A stretch of 64,000 nucleotides of DNA, taken from contig JAFGQE010000024.1 in assembly GCA_016935835.1 (NCBI GenBank), positions 12,338 through 76,337 on the forward strand, given 5' to 3'. The notes under the pieces are model-generated. The model was not told the DNA's origin, made no database searches, and saw only the letters and a program-made list of their open reading frames with translations. The position numbers were made by a program, and so were the translations under genes. Shown here one piece after another: positions 17,563 through 34,924 of the stretch; the first letter of the stretch is position 1, and each line of letters opens with the position of its first letter. The DNA comes from Clostridia bacterium (GTDB lineage: Bacteria; Bacillota; Clostridia; DUPQ01).

Positions 17563-17588
17563 GGCCCCGCCATGCGGGGCCTTTTTTA
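17563..17588 (+). terminator. rho-independent terminator of the zinc-ribbon gene (convergent with the crp-family gene)
   Basis: GGCCCCGC-cat-GCGGGGCC followed by TTTTTT. Confidence 0.8.
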
Positions 17589-18290
17589 CATCCTGTCGCC
17601 TTCTATTATTTTTTTCATGCCCCCGGGATCAAGAATTTCAATTTGCCGTCCGTTGAATGACAGGACACCTGCATCCCTTAGTTTTATCATCTCCCTTGAT
17701 AATGATGGTCTTTCAACGTTGAAAAATTCAGCAAGCTCATATCTTTTCATGGGTAAGTCTATGATACTTTTGCCTTTTTCCAAATAAATATTGTAAATAT
17801 ATGTACAAATTTTTGTTTTCAATCCCTTTATCGCCATGTATTCGATCCGTTTTGTGAGATTGACAGCCTTCCATGATAATATGCCAAGCATGTTTTGCTG
17901 AATTATGCGGTGTGCCTCGCATGCATTTGAGCACTGCCGCACTATGCTGCCCGGGATAATGTACATCACCGTGGAGTCGGTCAGACTTTCTACCGTGGCC
18001 GGCCACAGTCTCTCAAAGGCAAACGCCGCCGTTTCACCAAACAAGTCTCCTTTTCCAACGGATCCCAGTATAACCCTGTTTCCGGTAATCCCTGTCTTGA
18101 AAATTCCCATGGTTCCGCAAAGAACAAGACCGATTCCAAACAGGTCCCTTCCTTCAACTGCAGCAACATCGCCTTTTTTGTATTTTCTTATTACCGGATT
18201 CATGCATCCCAGCAAATGCTCCATTTCGCCCGATTTTATTCCCAGGAACAACTTGCTCTCCGCCAATGTTTTTATATATGTTCTGTACAT
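17586..18290 (-). CDS. Crp/Fnr-family transcriptional regulator (cNMP-binding domain + C-terminal helix-turn-helix (HTH)); possibly HcpR-like
   Basis: About 234 aa. The N-terminus is a cNMP/effector beta-roll ('GDLFGE...A') and the C-terminus is an HTH 'RYELAEFFNVERPSLSREM'. An RBS AGGAGA precedes the ATG at 18290. Confidence 0.75.
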   Translation of the reverse strand: MYRTYIKTLAESKLFLGIKSGEMEHLLGCMNPVIRKYKKGDVAAVEGRDLFGIGLVLCGTMGIFKTGITGNRVILGSVGKGDLFGETAAFAFERLWPATVESLTDSTVMYIIPGSIVRQCSNACEAHRIIQQNMLGILSWKAVNLTKRIEYMAIKGLKTKICTYIYNIYLEKGKSIIDLPMKRYELAEFFNVERPSLSREMIKLRDAGVLSFNGRQIEILDPGGMKKIIEGDRM

Positions 18291-18303
18291 ATTTCTCCTA
18301 CGT

Positions 18304-18317
18304 GTAACATATGTTAC
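18304..18317. promoter_or_regulatory. perfect 14-bp palindrome GTAACATATGTTAC (GTAAC-N4-GTTAC), a candidate Crp/Fnr(HcpR)-type operator
   Basis: It sits 14-28 nt upstream of the crp-family start codon, in the divergent region shared with the ferredoxin-like gene. Confidence 0.5.
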
Positions 18318-18512
18318 CAATATTATGAGTGAATTATATTATATTTACATTGTCTGTGCAATGGCACGGATAAGCGTGGAAGGTGCAGGGGTTTATACGC
18401 TTTTACCGGGAAATTCCCGGGCCCGGGATGCTTTAAAATGTAAAACAAGGCTATAAACAAGGCATTTTTACATTATCCGGCAAACCCTGGTTACATAAAG
18501 GAGATTAATTTT

Positions 18513-19232
18513 TTGAAAAGAGCAATAATACATATCGACGAGGAAAAATGCAATGGATGCGGGCTTTGCATAAGCGCCCGCCACGAAGGAGCCCTTCAGT
18601 TGGTTGATGGAAAGGCACGCTTGATTCTTGAATCATATTGCGATGGATTGGGAGACTGTCTTCCCGAATGTCCAAAGGGTGCGATAACGCTGGAGGAACG
18701 CGATGCCGCCGAATATGACGAAGAGGCCGTCAAGGCAAGAACAGTTGAAACGCCTTGCCATTCCTCAGAAACACTGGAGTGCGGTTGTCCCGGCTCACAG
18801 ACCCGAACAATCCATCATGAATCCACAAACAGCAAGGATCAGGGAAATACGTCTTTTTCTATTCCGTCCCAACTGCGGCAATGGCCGGTTCAGATCAAGC
18901 TGGTTCCAACAAGGGCACCATTCTTCAACAACGCACGGCTTCTTGTCGCTGCAGATTGCACCGCCTATGCCTATGCCGGTATCCATACTGACTTTATCAG
19001 GGATCGTATAACAATAATCGGATGTCCCAAGCTCGATATGACGGACTACACTGAAAAACTTTCCGCAATAATCAAGAACAATGATATACGCAGCATTACC
19101 GTTCTTAAAATGGAGGTTCCCTGTTGCAGCGGTCTCTCGAACTCTGTCAGGAATGCGATGGTTGACAGCGGCAAATACCTGCCCTGGAATGTTGTAACCG
19201 TTACAACGGACGGACAGCTGATAGAATCGTAG
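18513..19232 (+). CDS. ferredoxin-like iron-sulfur protein (2x[4Fe-4S] N-terminal domain plus a Cys-rich C-terminal domain; FrdX-like)
   Basis: 'CNGCGLC...CPKGAI' and 'CCSGLSN'. TTG start with a strong RBS AAGGAG 9 nt upstream. Confidence 0.6.
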   Translation: MKRAIIHIDEEKCNGCGLCISARHEGALQLVDGKARLILESYCDGLGDCLPECPKGAITLEERDAAEYDEEAVKARTVETPCHSSETLECGCPGSQTRTIHHESTNSKDQGNTSFSIPSQLRQWPVQIKLVPTRAPFFNNARLLVAADCTAYAYAGIHTDFIRDRITIIGCPKLDMTDYTEKLSAIIKNNDIRSITVLKMEVPCCSGLSNSVRNAMVDSGKYLPWNVVTVTTDGQLIES

Positions 19233-29723: not shown

Positions 29724-29824
29724 ACGGCACCCCCTGGTTTATAGAATGATTATACAACAAAGCCTGCCATGGGTTTGACCGCGCAGCATAAAAATATGAA
29801 TATTATCATCATGGTTGATATTCT

Positions 29825-31018
29825 TCAGCCAAGGGCTGCCTTGAATTCCTTTATCAACAGAGGCAGGATTTCCATTGCATCGCCGACTATGCCAAAGGTG
29901 GCAACCTTGAAGATGGGAGCGTCGGGATTCTTGTTAATGGCGACTATGATGTCAGATGATGACATACCCGCAAGATGCTGCACGGCCCCGGAAATTCCAC
30001 AGGCAAAATAAACATGGGGTCCGACGGTCTGCCCCGTCTGTCCGACCTGGTGGTTGTATTCTATCCAGCCCGCATCCACGGTAGCCCTTGATGCCCCCAC
30101 CGCACCGCCCAGCACTTCGGCGAGCTCGTTTATCAATTTGAAATTCTCAGGGGCCCCGAGTCCCCTTCCTCCCGAAACTATGACATCGGCTTCCGCCAGC
30201 GAAACCATTTCAAATATCGTCTTTACAACTTCCCTGACCTTGACCGATGTCTCCCGGGGGATACTGACCTCCGGCCTTGTCACGAGGCCCTTCCTGCTGT
30301 AGTCAGGTTCGAGCGGCTTCATTACCTTGTGCCTGACGGTTGCCATCTGGGGCCTGTGGTTGGGGCATATTATGGTTGCCATCAGATTGCCGCCGAACGC
30401 CGGCCTGGTCTGAAGAAGCTTGCCGTCCGCCGGGTCTATCTCAAGCCTTGTGCAATCCGCAGTCAGGCCTGTGTTTATTCTTGACGCTATCCTTGGTGCA
30501 AGAGATCTTCCATATGTAGTCGCCCCCATAAGAAGTATCTCCGGCCTTCCTTTTCTTATCATCTGCACAAATATGTCCGAATAGGATTCATCATTATACA
30601 CTGCAAGTGACCCGTCCTCGACTGCCATTACTTCATCCGCCCCGTATGCTATGAGCTTTTCACATGCATCCGAAAGCTTGTCGCCGATGACCACCGCAGT
30701 CAGCCGCGTTTTCCTGTCGTCGGCCAGTTTCCTGCCGGCTCCGAGCAATTCGTATGAAATGGGCTCGGGCACCCCGTTCTTTTGTTCTGCAAAAATCCAA
30801 ACCCCGCTGTATTTTGTTATGTCAACAGCATTTGATACCGGCCCTTTTTCATAATCAATCGCATTGAATTTGCATGCGGGCACACATATTCCGCACAAAG
30901 TGCAGTTATCAAGTATCACCGCTTTTCGTCCGTCCATCCTGATTGCCCCGAAAGGGCATGCCTTGACACATAGCCTGCATCCTATGCAGCTTTCTTCGAT
31001 TATTCTTATTCCTGACAT
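29825..31018 (-). CDS. etfA: electron transfer flavoprotein alpha subunit with an N-terminal 2x[4Fe-4S] ferredoxin domain (CarE/FixB-like)
   Basis: N-terminal 'CIGCRLCVKACP...CTLCGICVPACK', then the EtfA fold and FAD-binding C-terminus. RBS GGGAG. Confidence 0.8.
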   Translation of the reverse strand: MSGIRIIEESCIGCRLCVKACPFGAIRMDGRKAVILDNCTLCGICVPACKFNAIDYEKGPVSNAVDITKYSGVWIFAEQKNGVPEPISYELLGAGRKLADDRKTRLTAVVIGDKLSDACEKLIAYGADEVMAVEDGSLAVYNDESYSDIFVQMIRKGRPEILLMGATTYGRSLAPRIASRINTGLTADCTRLEIDPADGKLLQTRPAFGGNLMATIICPNHRPQMATVRHKVMKPLEPDYSRKGLVTRPEVSIPRETSVKVREVVKTIFEMVSLAEADVIVSGGRGLGAPENFKLINELAEVLGGAVGASRATVDAGWIEYNHQVGQTGQTVGPHVYFACGISGAVQHLAGMSSSDIIVAINKNPDAPIFKVATFGIVGDAMEILPLLIKEFKAALG

Positions 31019-31843: not shown

Positions 31844-33001
31844 CTATTTAGAAACCTTCTGGCTCTTAATCAATTCAAGCGCGATTACATTTCTCTGAAT
31901 CTGGTTCGTGCCTTCGTAAATCTGTGTTATCTTGGCGTCCCTCATCATTTTCTCAACGGGATATTCCTTCATGTACCCATATCCGCCCATTACCTGAACG
32001 GCGTCGACCGTGACCTTCATCGCCGTATCTGATGCAAAGACCTTTGATATCGCCGATTCCTTCGATATGGATTTTGCACCGCCGTCAATGTGCCTGCAGG
32101 TCTGATATACAAGGCACCTTGCGGCTTCTATCTGAATAGCCATGTCGGCAAGCATGTGCTGTATGGCCTGGAAGGATGATATCGGTTTGTCAAACTGAAC
32201 GCGCTCGCCGGAGTATTTAAGCGCCTCGTCAAAAGCCCCCTGTGCAATTCCCAGTGCTTGCGAGGCAACGCCCGGCCGTGTCCTGTCCAGCGTCTTCATT
32301 GCAACCAGGAATCCCATTCCTTCCCTTGCAAGAAGATTTTCCCTTGGAATCCTGCAGTCTTCAAAGACAAGCTCGCTGGTTACGGACGCCCTGATTCCCA
32401 TCTTGTTTTCCTTTTTGCCAAAGGAAAACCCAGGCGTGCCCTTTTCAACTATGAATGCGCTGAAGCCCCTTGCACCCTTGGATCTGTCGGTGCACGCTAT
32501 TACTGTATATACCTCGGCCTCTCCCCCGTTTGTTATCCATTGCTTGGTGCCGTTAAGGATATATTCATCCCCGTCGGCCTTTGCAGTTGTTTGTATCCCC
32601 GCGGCATCGCTGCCCGCGTTTGCCTCGGTGAGCCCGAATGCGGCAAGCTTCTTGCCTTGGGCTATGTCGGGCAGATATTTTGCCTTCTGTTCCTCTGTTC
32701 CGAAAAGTATTATCGGGTATGTACCCAGGCCGGTTCCTGCATATGCAAGCGCTATTCCCCCGCAAGCCCGGCTCAACTCCTCTACGACCAGCGCCATTTC
32801 AAAAATTCCACCCCCGAAACCGCCGTACTCCTCAGGTATGTATACTCCGAAAAGGTCGGAGTCGGCAAGCACCTTCACTATATCCCTTGGGAAAATTCCC
32901 TCTTCGTCGTATTTCAATGCCACCGGTTTTATCTTTTCGTCGGCGATCTTTGCAGCCAGGTCTTTTATCATCTGCTGTTCTTCGGTTAAAAAATAATTCA
33001 T
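31844..33001 (-). CDS. bcd: acyl-CoA dehydrogenase (butyryl-CoA dehydrogenase / CarC-like)
   Basis: 385 aa with the acyl-CoA dehydrogenase signatures 'GLTEANAGSD' and 'QWITNG', and a C-terminal catalytic Glu region. RBS GGGAGAG. Confidence 0.8.
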   Translation of the reverse strand: MNYFLTEEQQMIKDLAAKIADEKIKPVALKYDEEGIFPRDIVKVLADSDLFGVYIPEEYGGFGGGIFEMALVVEELSRACGGIALAYAGTGLGTYPIILFGTEEQKAKYLPDIAQGKKLAAFGLTEANAGSDAAGIQTTAKADGDEYILNGTKQWITNGGEAEVYTVIACTDRSKGARGFSAFIVEKGTPGFSFGKKENKMGIRASVTSELVFEDCRIPRENLLAREGMGFLVAMKTLDRTRPGVASQALGIAQGAFDEALKYSGERVQFDKPISSFQAIQHMLADMAIQIEAARCLVYQTCRHIDGGAKSISKESAISKVFASDTAMKVTVDAVQVMGGYGYMKEYPVEKMMRDAKITQIYEGTNQIQRNVIALELIKSQKVSK

Positions 33002-33082
33002 ATGTTCTCTCCCATAAGTTATCCTGCCACGGCAGTATTTATCAGTTGATATTATTATCAGGTAACAACTTAGCTGTTCTAT

Positions 33083-33111
33083 ATTATATATTAGGGAATG
33101 CTGAATAACAA
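33083..33111 (-). promoter_or_regulatory. sigma-A-type promoter of the bcd-etfBA operon (TTGTTA-N17-TATAAT on the minus strand)
   Basis: -35 is the complement of 33106-33111 and -10 is the complement of 33083-33088. The predicted leader to the ATG at 33001 is about 75 nt. Confidence 0.5.
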
Positions 33112-33610
33112 GGGATTTTAGATATTCAGCACCGGCGGCAGCCGGATGGATTGAAAACAGTTAATATTACGGCTTTTCAATCCATTTCCCTAATATCCGG
33201 CGAACCGAATAAGGCAAAGCAAGGTCTTAAGGCCTGTGAAGGCGCAGGGTTTTTACACATATATTAAGAAAAGCCTGTGCCTGAACCGCTTGAAAATGCA
33301 AAGCAAGATTATAGGCAGGGCATTTTCAAGTTATTCGGCAAGCCCTATATCGGGAATGCGAAATAACAAGGGATTTTAGATATTCAGCACCGGCGGCAGC
33401 CGGATGGATTGAAAACATTTGGTATTACGGCTTTTCAATCCATTTCCCTAATATCCGGCGAACCGAATAAGGCAAAGCAAGGTCTTAAGGCCTATGAAGG
33501 TACAGGGCTTTTACATATATATTAAGAAAAGCCCGCGCCTGAACCGATTGAAAATGTTAAGCCGGAATGCAAGCAAAGTATTTTCAAGTTATTCGGCAAG
33601 CCCTATATAA
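33094..33610. repeat. tandem direct repeat: two copies (~33106-33363 and ~33364-33621), period 258 bp, about 90% identical. Each copy has about five internal hairpins / inverted repeats.
   Basis: The copies align directly. The arms are GCTGAATA/TATTCAGC, CCGGC/GCCGG, ATGGATTGAAAA/TTTTCAATCCAT, GGGCTTTT/AAAAGCCC and CTTGAAAATGC/GCATTTTCAAG. Confidence 0.85.
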
Positions 33611-33708
33611 ACCATGCGCAAAGCACAAGATTAAAATATTCCACTGATAATCCTAATCTTTTTGATGATTTCCTGTTATTGCTTTTCAATCCAACGGCTG
33701 ATGTCCAT

Positions 33709-33741
33709 AAAAAAATGGATCCGTTCCATGAACGGATCCAT
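33709..33741 (-). terminator. rho-independent terminator of the subtilisin gene
   Basis: ATGGATCCGTTC-cat-GAACGGATCCAT. A 12-bp stem is followed on the minus strand by T7. Confidence 0.8.
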
Positions 33742-33754
33742 CTGATAAAATTTT

Positions 33755-34924
33755 CTATGGTGCAAGAAGCATGGCCGGGACATCTACCAGTCCATAACCG
33801 TAAGATGTGTCGTATCCAAGCGCCCCCAAATCCTCTACCGTTTCGGTGATTATACCATATACATCCTCTGGTATAAGCGCACCGTTGGTTGTCAGGAGCA
33901 CCGCCACCGCGCCGGTCACATGGGGAGCCGCCATTGAGGTTCCGCTCATGTATGCATAAACGCCGCCTTTGTAAGTCGAATAAATGTAACCACCCGGGGC
34001 CGCAACATCCACCTCGGGTCCGATTGAGGAAAACGATGAAATCGTGTCATTGCTGTCAATGGATGATACCGCGATGACCTGTGGATATGCCGCGGGATAA
34101 CCGACGCTTCCGCCATAGCTGTTGCCGGCCGAAGCCACCAAAACGATTCCCGCATTGTAAGCTTTTACCACCGCTTCTTCCAAAGATGAGCTCCCCGCTC
34201 CCCCGAGGCTCATGTTTATGACATCCATGCCGTTCGCTATCGCCCATTCGATTCCTGCGATTACCGTGGATATCGTTCCGCTTCCCCTTCTGTCAAGTAC
34301 TTTCACGGCATAAAGGTTCAACGTGGGACCCACGCCCACAACACCAAAGTCATTGTCGACCGCCGCAATGATTCCTGCGACATGCGTTCCGTGGCCGTTG
34401 TCATCGTCGGCTGTCTTTCTCGGTGAAATAAGGTTGTATCCGCCCTTGATGTTTGCAGCAAGGTCCGGATGGTCGAGGTCTATCCCGGTGTCAATAACAG
34501 CCACCTTCACCCCGGTGTTAACAACCTGCTCCCATACCTCATCAGCTCCTATCCTGTCCACTCCCCACGGCAGCACCTCGCTTGGCGCCGGCGGCGGGGT
34601 TTCGGTGGGTACCGGAACCGGTTTCTTGTCCATCGTCACAATAGAGTCGTTTTCGATGCGCTTGATATTTTTTTCCGTCGCCAGCCTTTTCAATGCCGCG
34701 TCCGGCAGATAAGCGGAGACGGCGTTGATTATGGAAAGATGCCTTTCAACGGTACCCCCCGCGGCATTTACGAGCGCATCCATTTCATCCTCATCCGAGA
34801 AGCTCTCCTCGAATACTATTATTTTTTTATTGTTGTTTGCCGCAGATGAAGGATGCGAATATGCGTTTGAAAATACCAGCGCCAAAACCATTATGATTAC
34901 CAGTAATAATTTCAGCTTTTTCAT
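33755..34924 (-). CDS. secreted subtilisin-like serine protease (peptidase S8) with an N-terminal inhibitor (I9) propeptide
   Basis: Signal peptide, then catalytic-triad motifs 'DTGID', 'HGTHVAG' and 'GTSMAAPHV'. RBS GGGGGAGG. Confidence 0.85.
   Translation of the reverse strand: MKKLKLLLVIIMVLALVFSNAYSHPSSAANNNKKIIVFEESFSDEDEMDALVNAAGGTVERHLSIINAVSAYLPDAALKRLATEKNIKRIENDSIVTMDKKPVPVPTETPPPAPSEVLPWGVDRIGADEVWEQVVNTGVKVAVIDTGIDLDHPDLAANIKGGYNLISPRKTADDDNGHGTHVAGIIAAVDNDFGVVGVGPTLNLYAVKVLDRRGSGTISTVIAGIEWAIANGMDVINMSLGGAGSSSLEEAVVKAYNAGIVLVASAGNSYGGSVGYPAAYPQVIAVSSIDSNDTISSFSSIGPEVDVAAPGGYIYSTYKGGVYAYMSGTSMAAPHVTGAVAVLLTTNGALIPEDVYGIITETVEDLGALGYDTSYGYGLVDVPAMLLAP

Follow-up and report, generated by a model that had tools for sequence, protein, structure and literature searches.

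The window analysed here, a stretch of 64,000 nucleotides from a contig of a Clostridia bacterium, carries on its minus strand a gene for an S8 peptidase (33755-34924), followed by an acyl-CoA dehydrogenase gene (bcd; 31844-33001) and then by the genes for EtfB and EtfA. These assignments come from Pfam, and together with a scan for terminators and promoters they confirm the flanks that an earlier note on this DNA had given to an unusual repeat, namely the terminator of the S8 (subtilisin) gene on one side and the promoter of the bcd-etfBA operon on the other. EtfA (29825-31018) carries a two-[4Fe-4S] ferredoxin domain at its N-terminus; its Pfam matches are Fer4 families together with ETF and ETF_alpha, and such an architecture is unusual for the Etf of a bcd-etfBA operon.

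Between these flanks lies a single tandem array (33094-33608 in Tandem Repeats Finder: period 258, 2.0 copies, 90% matches, 0% indels, score 862). A second repeat search delimited units of 33094-33351 and 33352-33609 with 90% identity, and a direct comparison of one unit with the other found 25 of the 258 positions mismatched. The two tandem copies of about 90% identity and 258-bp period that had previously been recognized are hence borne out by all three approaches. The earlier note had also asserted that no terminal inverted repeat was present, and in this it was wrong. Each 252-bp unit has imperfect terminal inverted repeats (TIRs) of 16-18 bp (GGGAATGCTGAATAAC / GGGCTTGCCGAATAAC), and an 18-nt inverted repeat, TAGGGAATGCTGAATAAC / GTTATTCGGCAAGCCCTA, which is 83% complementary, ends both the bcd-proximal copy, E1, and the distal copy, E2 (Table 1). 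Because the TIRs stand at the unit ends, the natural units are 33094-33345 and 33352-33603 with TATATC between them, and the phase originally given to the copies (33106 and 33364) was arbitrary. It was the mistaken claim about the termini that led to an under-weighting of one of the three readings first proposed, that of a miniature inverted-repeat transposable element (MITE).

The TA-rich runs that flank the units, TATATTA, TATATC and TATATA, fit a target duplication of 2, 4 or 6 bp. In the left flank the ATTATATA part is ancestral, since it is found in the empty site described below, and TTA is either new or the end of the element. Among open reading frames of 40 aa or more, just one is contained entirely in the array, a 47-aa GTG ORF (33236-33379) that runs across the unit junction; a 156-aa plus-strand ORF (32638-33108), situated over the bcd coding region, clips only the first 15 bp of E1.

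Table 1. Element copies, their termini and hairpins, and neighbouring signals. Positions refer to the window, except where preceded by the number (L) of a locus fetched from another genome.
Feature	Position	Strand	Details
E1, bcd-proximal element copy, 252 bp	33094-33345	+	nhmmer E = 4.5e-84
E1 left TIR	33094-33109		GGGAATGCTGAATAAC
E1 right TIR	33330-33345		GTTATTCGGCAAGCCC
E2, distal element copy, 252 bp	33352-33603	+	nhmmer E = 8.5e-80
E2 left TIR	33352-33367		GGGAATGCGAAATAAC
E2 right TIR	33588-33603
Left TA-rich flank	33087-33093		TATATTA
Spacer, E1 right end to E2 left end	33346-33351		TATATC, TA-rich, 6 bp
Right TA-rich flank	33604-33609		TATATA, apparent target duplication
Promoter-like sequence for bcd	33083-33111	-	TTGTTA-17-TATAAT, 10/12 consensus matches
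Intrinsic terminator of S8 peptidase gene	33713-33743	-	14-bp stem and T run; kept in L001; upstream of the element on the gene strand
Hairpin H1	33100-33107 / 33123-33130		GCTGAATA/TATTCAGC; E1
Hairpin H2	33132-33145, 33390-33403		CCGGCGGCAGCCGG
Hairpin H3	33146-33185, 33404-33443		ATGGATTGAAAA-N16-TTTTCAATCCAT
Hairpin H5	~33238-33290		E1
Hairpin H7	33289-33330		CTTGAAAATGC-N20-GCATTTTCAAG; E1
c3, 117-bp right-half fragment	18374-18490	+	unit positions ~140-258; 71% identity to E1; nhmmer E = 2e-19
Second head-to-tail dimer, sister MAG	L019 6104-6360 and 6363-6619		~83% identity to E1; between dapB and TPR gene
Full-length single copy, third MAG (uncultured Clostridiaceae bacterium)	L020 2417-2166		~70% identity
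Full-length single copy, third MAG	L007 7731-7981		~70% identity
Mini, 46 bp, both ends kept, sister MAG	L001 7253-7298		perfect 16-bp TIR, GGGAGTGCTGAATAAC…GTTATTCAGCACTCCC
Mini, 52 bp, both ends kept, third MAG	L021 1426-1375
Right-hand fragment	L013 4219-4285		upstream of zwf
Right-hand fragment, third MAG	L020 3-94

The empty site and the promoter of bcd

The closest relative is a sister MAG (GCA_046484775.1) whose Bcd is 98% identical and whose corresponding locus, L001, has the same gene order as the window: G6PD, cyclase, S8 peptidase, bcd, etfB, etfA and GlcNAc 2-epimerase. The spacer between the S8 gene and bcd measures 237 nt in this relative and 753 nt in the window, a difference of exactly 516, or 2 x 258. 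When exactly 516 bp are taken out of the window's spacer, what is left aligns colinearly with that of the sister MAG (237/237), and the BLAST breakpoints of L001 on the window fall at 33090 and 33604 with a 4-nt overlap, TATA. The element is absent upstream of bcd in each of L001-L006, the more distant of which (L002-L006) have a Bcd of about 90% identity and are without the S8 gene. The empty site in L001, combined with the absence of any trace in L002-L006, gives the event its polarity: a gain in the window's lineage. In the comparison with L002-L005, where the order is cyclase, 40-aa ORF, bcd, the S8 peptidase gene occurs only in the window and the sister MAG; it is a lineage-specific gain adjoining the bcd promoter.

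The insertion took place in a TATATA run that overlaps the upstream edge of the old -10 box. Upstream of bcd, the empty site reads TTGTGC-17-TATAAT in the alignment, a sequence that the consensus scan did not list because its first hexamer has only 3/6 matches; the old -35, TTGTGC, now lies 516 bp away in the window. The -10 hexamer of the window, TATAAT (33088-33083), is ancestral and also present in the empty site, and the -35 hexamer TTGTTA (33111-33106) is situated inside the left TIR of E1, just as it had been placed in copy 1 from the start. On the gene strand, the sequence running outward through the left end of E1 is CCC TTGTTA TTCAGCATTCCCTAATA TATAAT, with a 17-nt spacer. An identically placed TTGTTA-17-TATAAT precedes the TPR gene at the second dimer, in L019.

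Such an arrangement suggests that the insertion would have parted the -35 (TTGTGC) of the old bcd promoter from its -10 (TATAAT), that the left end of E1 would have donated an outward -35, TTGTTA, at 17 bp, and that the resulting hybrid promoter would drive bcd-etfBA. Judged from sequence, the chances that this putative hybrid promoter with its element-donated -35 is functionally important for bcd-etfBA appear about even. At the ends of IS1, IS2, IS26/IS257 and IS30, hybrid promoters are formed from an outward -35 within the terminal inverted repeat and a -10 already resident 16-18 bp away. The donor in our case differs in being a non-coding miniature element, and here an old promoter was apparently replaced, with no silent gene activated. 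Further downstream, the bcd leader includes a block of about 35 nt (33036-33072; TTTATCAGTTGATATTATTATCAGGTAACAACTT) in which CTGATAA is repeated on the gene strand; L001 matches this block at 100% and the remainder of the spacer at about 80-85%, and the block is a candidate operator of bcd-etfBA.

Dispersed copies of the element in three genomes

The search of relatives that the earlier note had proposed, carried out by BLAST and with an nhmmer profile, yielded 12 copies or fragments at unrelated loci in three MAGs, which are uncultured Clostridia or Clostridiaceae by annotation. All of the copies are intergenic, the young ones being situated in TATA runs, and the genes beside them have unrelated housekeeping functions (dapB/TPR, a DUF3604 gene, a beta-galactosidase gene and zwf). 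Conservation across the copies is best at the right end, TTA often precedes the left end, and no target duplication was seen around the copies of the third MAG. The element is antisense to both of its neighbours in the window and in L019, and sense in L020 and L007. The dapB and TPR genes that surround the L019 dimer are 16 nt apart, in an apparent operon, in a relative with a 2.45-Mb genome (L028 1984-2001).

Three pairs of filled and empty sites were found, that of the bcd spacer, that of the 46-bp mini in L001 and that of the fragment c3. A TGTATAAT box directly precedes the mini of L001, which is situated upstream of the GlcNAc 2-epimerase gene; in the window, the orthologous etfA-epimerase spacer (29724-29824) lacks this mini and is therefore an empty site. 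In c3, by comparison, it is the window that is filled. This fragment, a clean insertion, retains the natural right end and has neither a left TIR nor a target duplication. The orthologous spacers between the Crp-family and 4Fe-4S protein genes in the sister MAG (L025; 105 vs 222 nt) and in L026 are both without it. A candidate left TIR just to the left of c3 was rejected, since the sister genome shows that stretch to be ancestral flank. The fragment lies in sense orientation between a promoter/operator region (a GTAACATATGTTAC palindrome and a -10-like box) and the RBS of the 4Fe-4S protein gene, whose leader it lengthens by 117 nt. The palindrome is perfect (18303-18316) and stands between the divergent genes for a Crp/Fnr-family regulator (17586-18290, minus strand) and the 4Fe-4S protein (18513-19232, plus strand). 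Both the sister MAG (L025) and L026 conserve it, and presumably it is a Crp/Fnr-type (HcpR-like) operator.

A scan with a right-end pattern of one genome per species gave 16 matches, 5 of them true and located in two MAGs; the other 11 came up by chance in unrelated phyla, one of them being L011, in coding-like sequence. In the JGI metagenomes the right-end pattern had 0 matches and a two-block pattern had 1 chance match (L023), and no family member was found in viral contigs (two pattern scans) or in plasmids and phages (BLAST). As the metagenome, viral, plasmid and phage searches were all empty, the family seems to be confined to a narrow clade. A search of the window and of 29 loci from other genomes detected no autonomous element (a related IS) and no transposase sharing these ends, and no transposase gene adjoins any copy.

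Fold of the element and alternatives to a MITE

All of the inverted repeats that had been listed for the two copies were found at the places given for them (Table 1), including the GGGCTTTT-N14-AAAAGCCC hairpin of copy 2; its counterpart in copy 1 (GGGTTTTT/AAAAGCCT) has two G.T positions and not, as had been stated, one mismatch. Copy 2 is weaker in its first hairpin (GCGAAATA) and in its last (8 bp only). The reported recurrence of the heptamer TTGAAAA/TTTTCAA was likewise confirmed, with 8 occurrences in the 516 bp vs 58 in the other 63.5 kb. On the plus strand, a terminator-like hairpin with a T run (CCTGTGAAGGCGCAGG GTTTTT; 33233-33257) occurs in copy 1 only, the corresponding stretch of copy 2 (33491-33515) having a weakened stem and a GCTTTT tail. 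Outside the repeat, positions 33668-33693 match the 3' arm of H3 (ATTTCCTGTTATTGCTTTTCAATCCA) at 21/26 positions, and a weaker version is present in the empty-site genome; this H3-like flank may be the remnant of an older insertion.

One unit folded as RNA reaches -98.6 kcal/mol on the plus strand (z = -8.2 vs dinucleotide shuffles) and -86.8 kcal/mol on the minus strand (z = -5.8). For the six full-length copies RNAalifold gives -63.3 kcal/mol (plus strand) and -48.0 (minus strand), with covariation terms that are unfavourable on both (+3.3 and +2.9 kcal/mol, respectively). When pairs are counted on a two-domain fold of E1, 87.5% of the cells are paired and 8 pairs have changed on both sides, a number reached in 5/500 shuffles, and the covariation score exceeds all 500 shuffles, in a set of 6 related sequences of which two pairs are near-identical over half their length and one supplied the structure. 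The pairs kept number 78/85 in A19, 63/85 in L020 and 61/85 in L007, for which neutral simulation predicts 68 +/- 2.4, 55 +/- 3.1 and 54 +/- 3.1, respectively, and pairing is slightly better on the plus strand through G.U pairs. These values hint, weakly, that the hairpins are maintained somewhat better than drift predicts and that there is some selection on structure, for which a MITE regarded as mere junk would have no need. The kept pairing is compatible with a role of the hairpins, or of the repeated TGCYGAATAA and TTGAAAA motifs, in transposition. A search of Rfam 15 at E <= 10 over 32500-34300 produced matches at chance level only, the best within the repeat being RAGATH-9 (16.2 bits vs a gathering score of 75.2, E = 9.8), in agreement with the initial failure to match the element to any riboswitch.

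One could nonetheless view the repeat as a structured ncRNA gene or cis-regulatory RNA, transcribed from the plus strand and only secondarily spread. The great stability of the plus-strand fold, the pairs changed on both sides, the covariation score, the pairing kept above neutral simulation and the sense orientation of c3 in a 5' leader would all suit such an RNA, but Rfam recognizes no family even at E <= 10, the covariation term of RNAalifold is unfavourable, and the six sequences compared include the two near-identical pairs. Moreover, the orientation of the element to its genes is not fixed, no promoter or terminator is defined for a plus-strand transcript, and presence or absence between near-identical loci is unlike the behaviour of a conserved RNA gene. 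This option, which the earlier note had raised, gains no positive support beyond hairpin maintenance, and we consider it very improbable. The other proposal, in which the repeat serves the bcd-etfBA promoter specifically as an array of upstream regulator sites, fares still worse. Its repeated TTGAAAA/TTTTCAA arms and its position directly upstream of the promoter are what such an array might look like, but the element is absent from the bcd promoters of all the relatives examined (L001-L006), even where Bcd is 98% identical, and it stands elsewhere beside dapB/TPR, the DUF3604 gene, the beta-galactosidase gene and zwf. A locus-specific array is refuted by this distribution, and we give it practically no credence.

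A more substantial alternative is that the element is mobile but not a classical DDE MITE, being copied instead from its right (3') end in a strand-specific fashion, by a single-strand HUH/rolling-circle transposase or through an RNA intermediate. Such a mechanism would give 5'-truncated, duplication-free insertions as well as tandem copies. It would accommodate c3, with its natural right end, internal left boundary and clean insertion without duplication, which is not predicted by simple DDE cut-and-paste, and also the L013 and L020 3-94 fragments, which keep only right-hand parts. The conservation of the right end, the subterminal hairpins at both ends, the slightly better plus-strand pairing and the TTA at the end of many left flanks point the same way. 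Nevertheless, the inverted termini are clear, the minis keep both ends in the manner typical of TIR transposons, the young copies are flanked by TA-rich repeats, and neither a poly-A or other retroelement signature nor a nearby gene for an HUH transposase or reverse transcriptase was found. In addition, the clean truncated insertion is a single case, and ordinary MITE families also have 5'-truncated copies (PMC10969869). All in all, we think copying from the right end unlikely. The same doubt applies to its strongest version, a strand-specific, right-end-copied element with hairpins under selection that systematically rewires promoters; if true, right-end copying would account for c3, for the recurrence of head-to-tail dimers whose left domains are homogenised, and for the repeated arrival of the element, with its outward -35, at TATA boxes that resemble a -10. 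IS200/IS605-derived PATEs share with the family the subterminal hairpins, the strand bias in pairing, one duplication-free insertion and the TTA left flank, but they lack inverted termini, which the family has. PATEs insert 3' of a fixed short motif; the copies of the family are too few for a target motif to be defined, and a TnpA or TnpB gene was not found. Finally, nothing suggests a diversity-generating retroelement, as the mismatches between the units are not adenine-specific.

A probable small MITE family and its possible history

The reading that we favour, and hold to be very probable, is that the repeat consists of two head-to-tail copies of a 252-bp non-autonomous MITE-type element that belongs to a small family. 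Prokaryotic MITEs are shorter than 500 bp, have TIRs of 4-30 bp, AT-rich intergenic targets and stable stem-loops, and come in size variants and 5'-truncated copies, some with sigma-70-like promoters (PMC10969869). At 252 bp, the element of the window is of the appropriate size; it has TIRs, a stable fold and no transposase gene, and its dispersed copies occupy AT-rich intergenic sites and show insertion polymorphism. The MITE-like option, the last of the three put forward at the outset, is hence supported by the TIRs, by the 516-bp-shorter empty site in L001 and by the unrelated loci in three genomes. The resemblance to type II MITEs, which are tied to an IS only by their TIRs (PMC10969869), includes their size, their non-coding nature, their TIRs (16-18 bp here), TA-rich intergenic targets, apparent short flanking repeats at young copies and a stable foldback. 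It extends to deletion and 5'-truncated derivatives, to presence/absence polymorphism and to a promoter-like hexamer in the end. In contrast to prokaryotic MITEs, however, the family has few known copies, no partner IS identified in the fetched DNA, and tandem dimers at two independent loci. The family, whose ends are GGGnnTGCYGAATAAC, seems to be a new and apparently undescribed MITE family. Its ends were compared with those of IS1 (GGnnnTG), the IS1595/IS1016 group, IS903/IS5 (…TTGAATAA…), ISAs1 and Tn3 (GGGG…); the similarity is suggestive at best, and we claim no family for them.

Other small bacterial repeats offer partial parallels. The Correia elements (CREE/NEMIS) of Neisseria are small TIR elements found just upstream of genes, where their sigma-70-like promoter parts can drive the neighbour (PMC10969869). 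Their likeness to the family described here is functional only, since the host phylum and the TIR sequence differ; unlike it they have TIRs of about 26 bp, a length of about 105-155 bp and hundreds of copies, and the element of the window supplies only a -35, the -10 being that of the host. Correia elements have TA-type targets and undergo RNase III processing. The BOX, RUP and SPRITE repeats of the pneumococcus are intergenic and bunched, being inserted beside or into each other (PMC10969869). The modular build of BOX recalls the left and right domains of our family and its right-half-only fragment, but there is no sequence similarity, and it is the modules inside a single BOX element that vary in number, whereas our family repeats its whole units head to tail.

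Under the MITE reading, a transposase that recognizes the GGGnnTGCYGAATAAC ends would move the element in trans, with a preference for TATA-type targets and, probably, a duplication of 4-6 bp. The dimer could have arisen when a second copy inserted into the TA-rich site re-formed at the end of the first, or else by local duplication, after which a local sequence exchange would have made the left ~140 bp uniform. Within either dimer, the two units are 96-99% identical over their left ~140 nt and only 83-88% identical over their right ~110 nt; between the two dimer loci both halves are about 80-83% identical. The simplest way to read this pattern is an exchange confined to the left domain, odd as it is to find the same boundary in two genomes; c3 starts at nearly this boundary as well. 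That the left domain is a younger element lying beside an older right-domain element was considered and rejected, the junction being conserved in 6/6 full-length copies, including those of about 70% identity. A descent of the two dimers from one ancestral dimer moved as a unit is unsupported, the right halves being closer within a locus than between loci.

The recognition of this repeat as mobile removes a false lead, for the hairpin-dense sequence is neither a new riboswitch nor a bcd-specific control region, and it should be masked in searches for RNA motifs and operators in this clade. The pairs of filled and empty sites are useful as strain markers and for finding the transposase. To judge from the two versions of the spacer, the bcd locus would provide a clean natural example of a miniature element that splits a core metabolic promoter, that of butyryl-CoA dehydrogenase and the electron-bifurcating Etf, while supplying the replacement -35. 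As a consequence of the insertion, the expression of bcd-etfBA could differ between two otherwise near-identical organisms.
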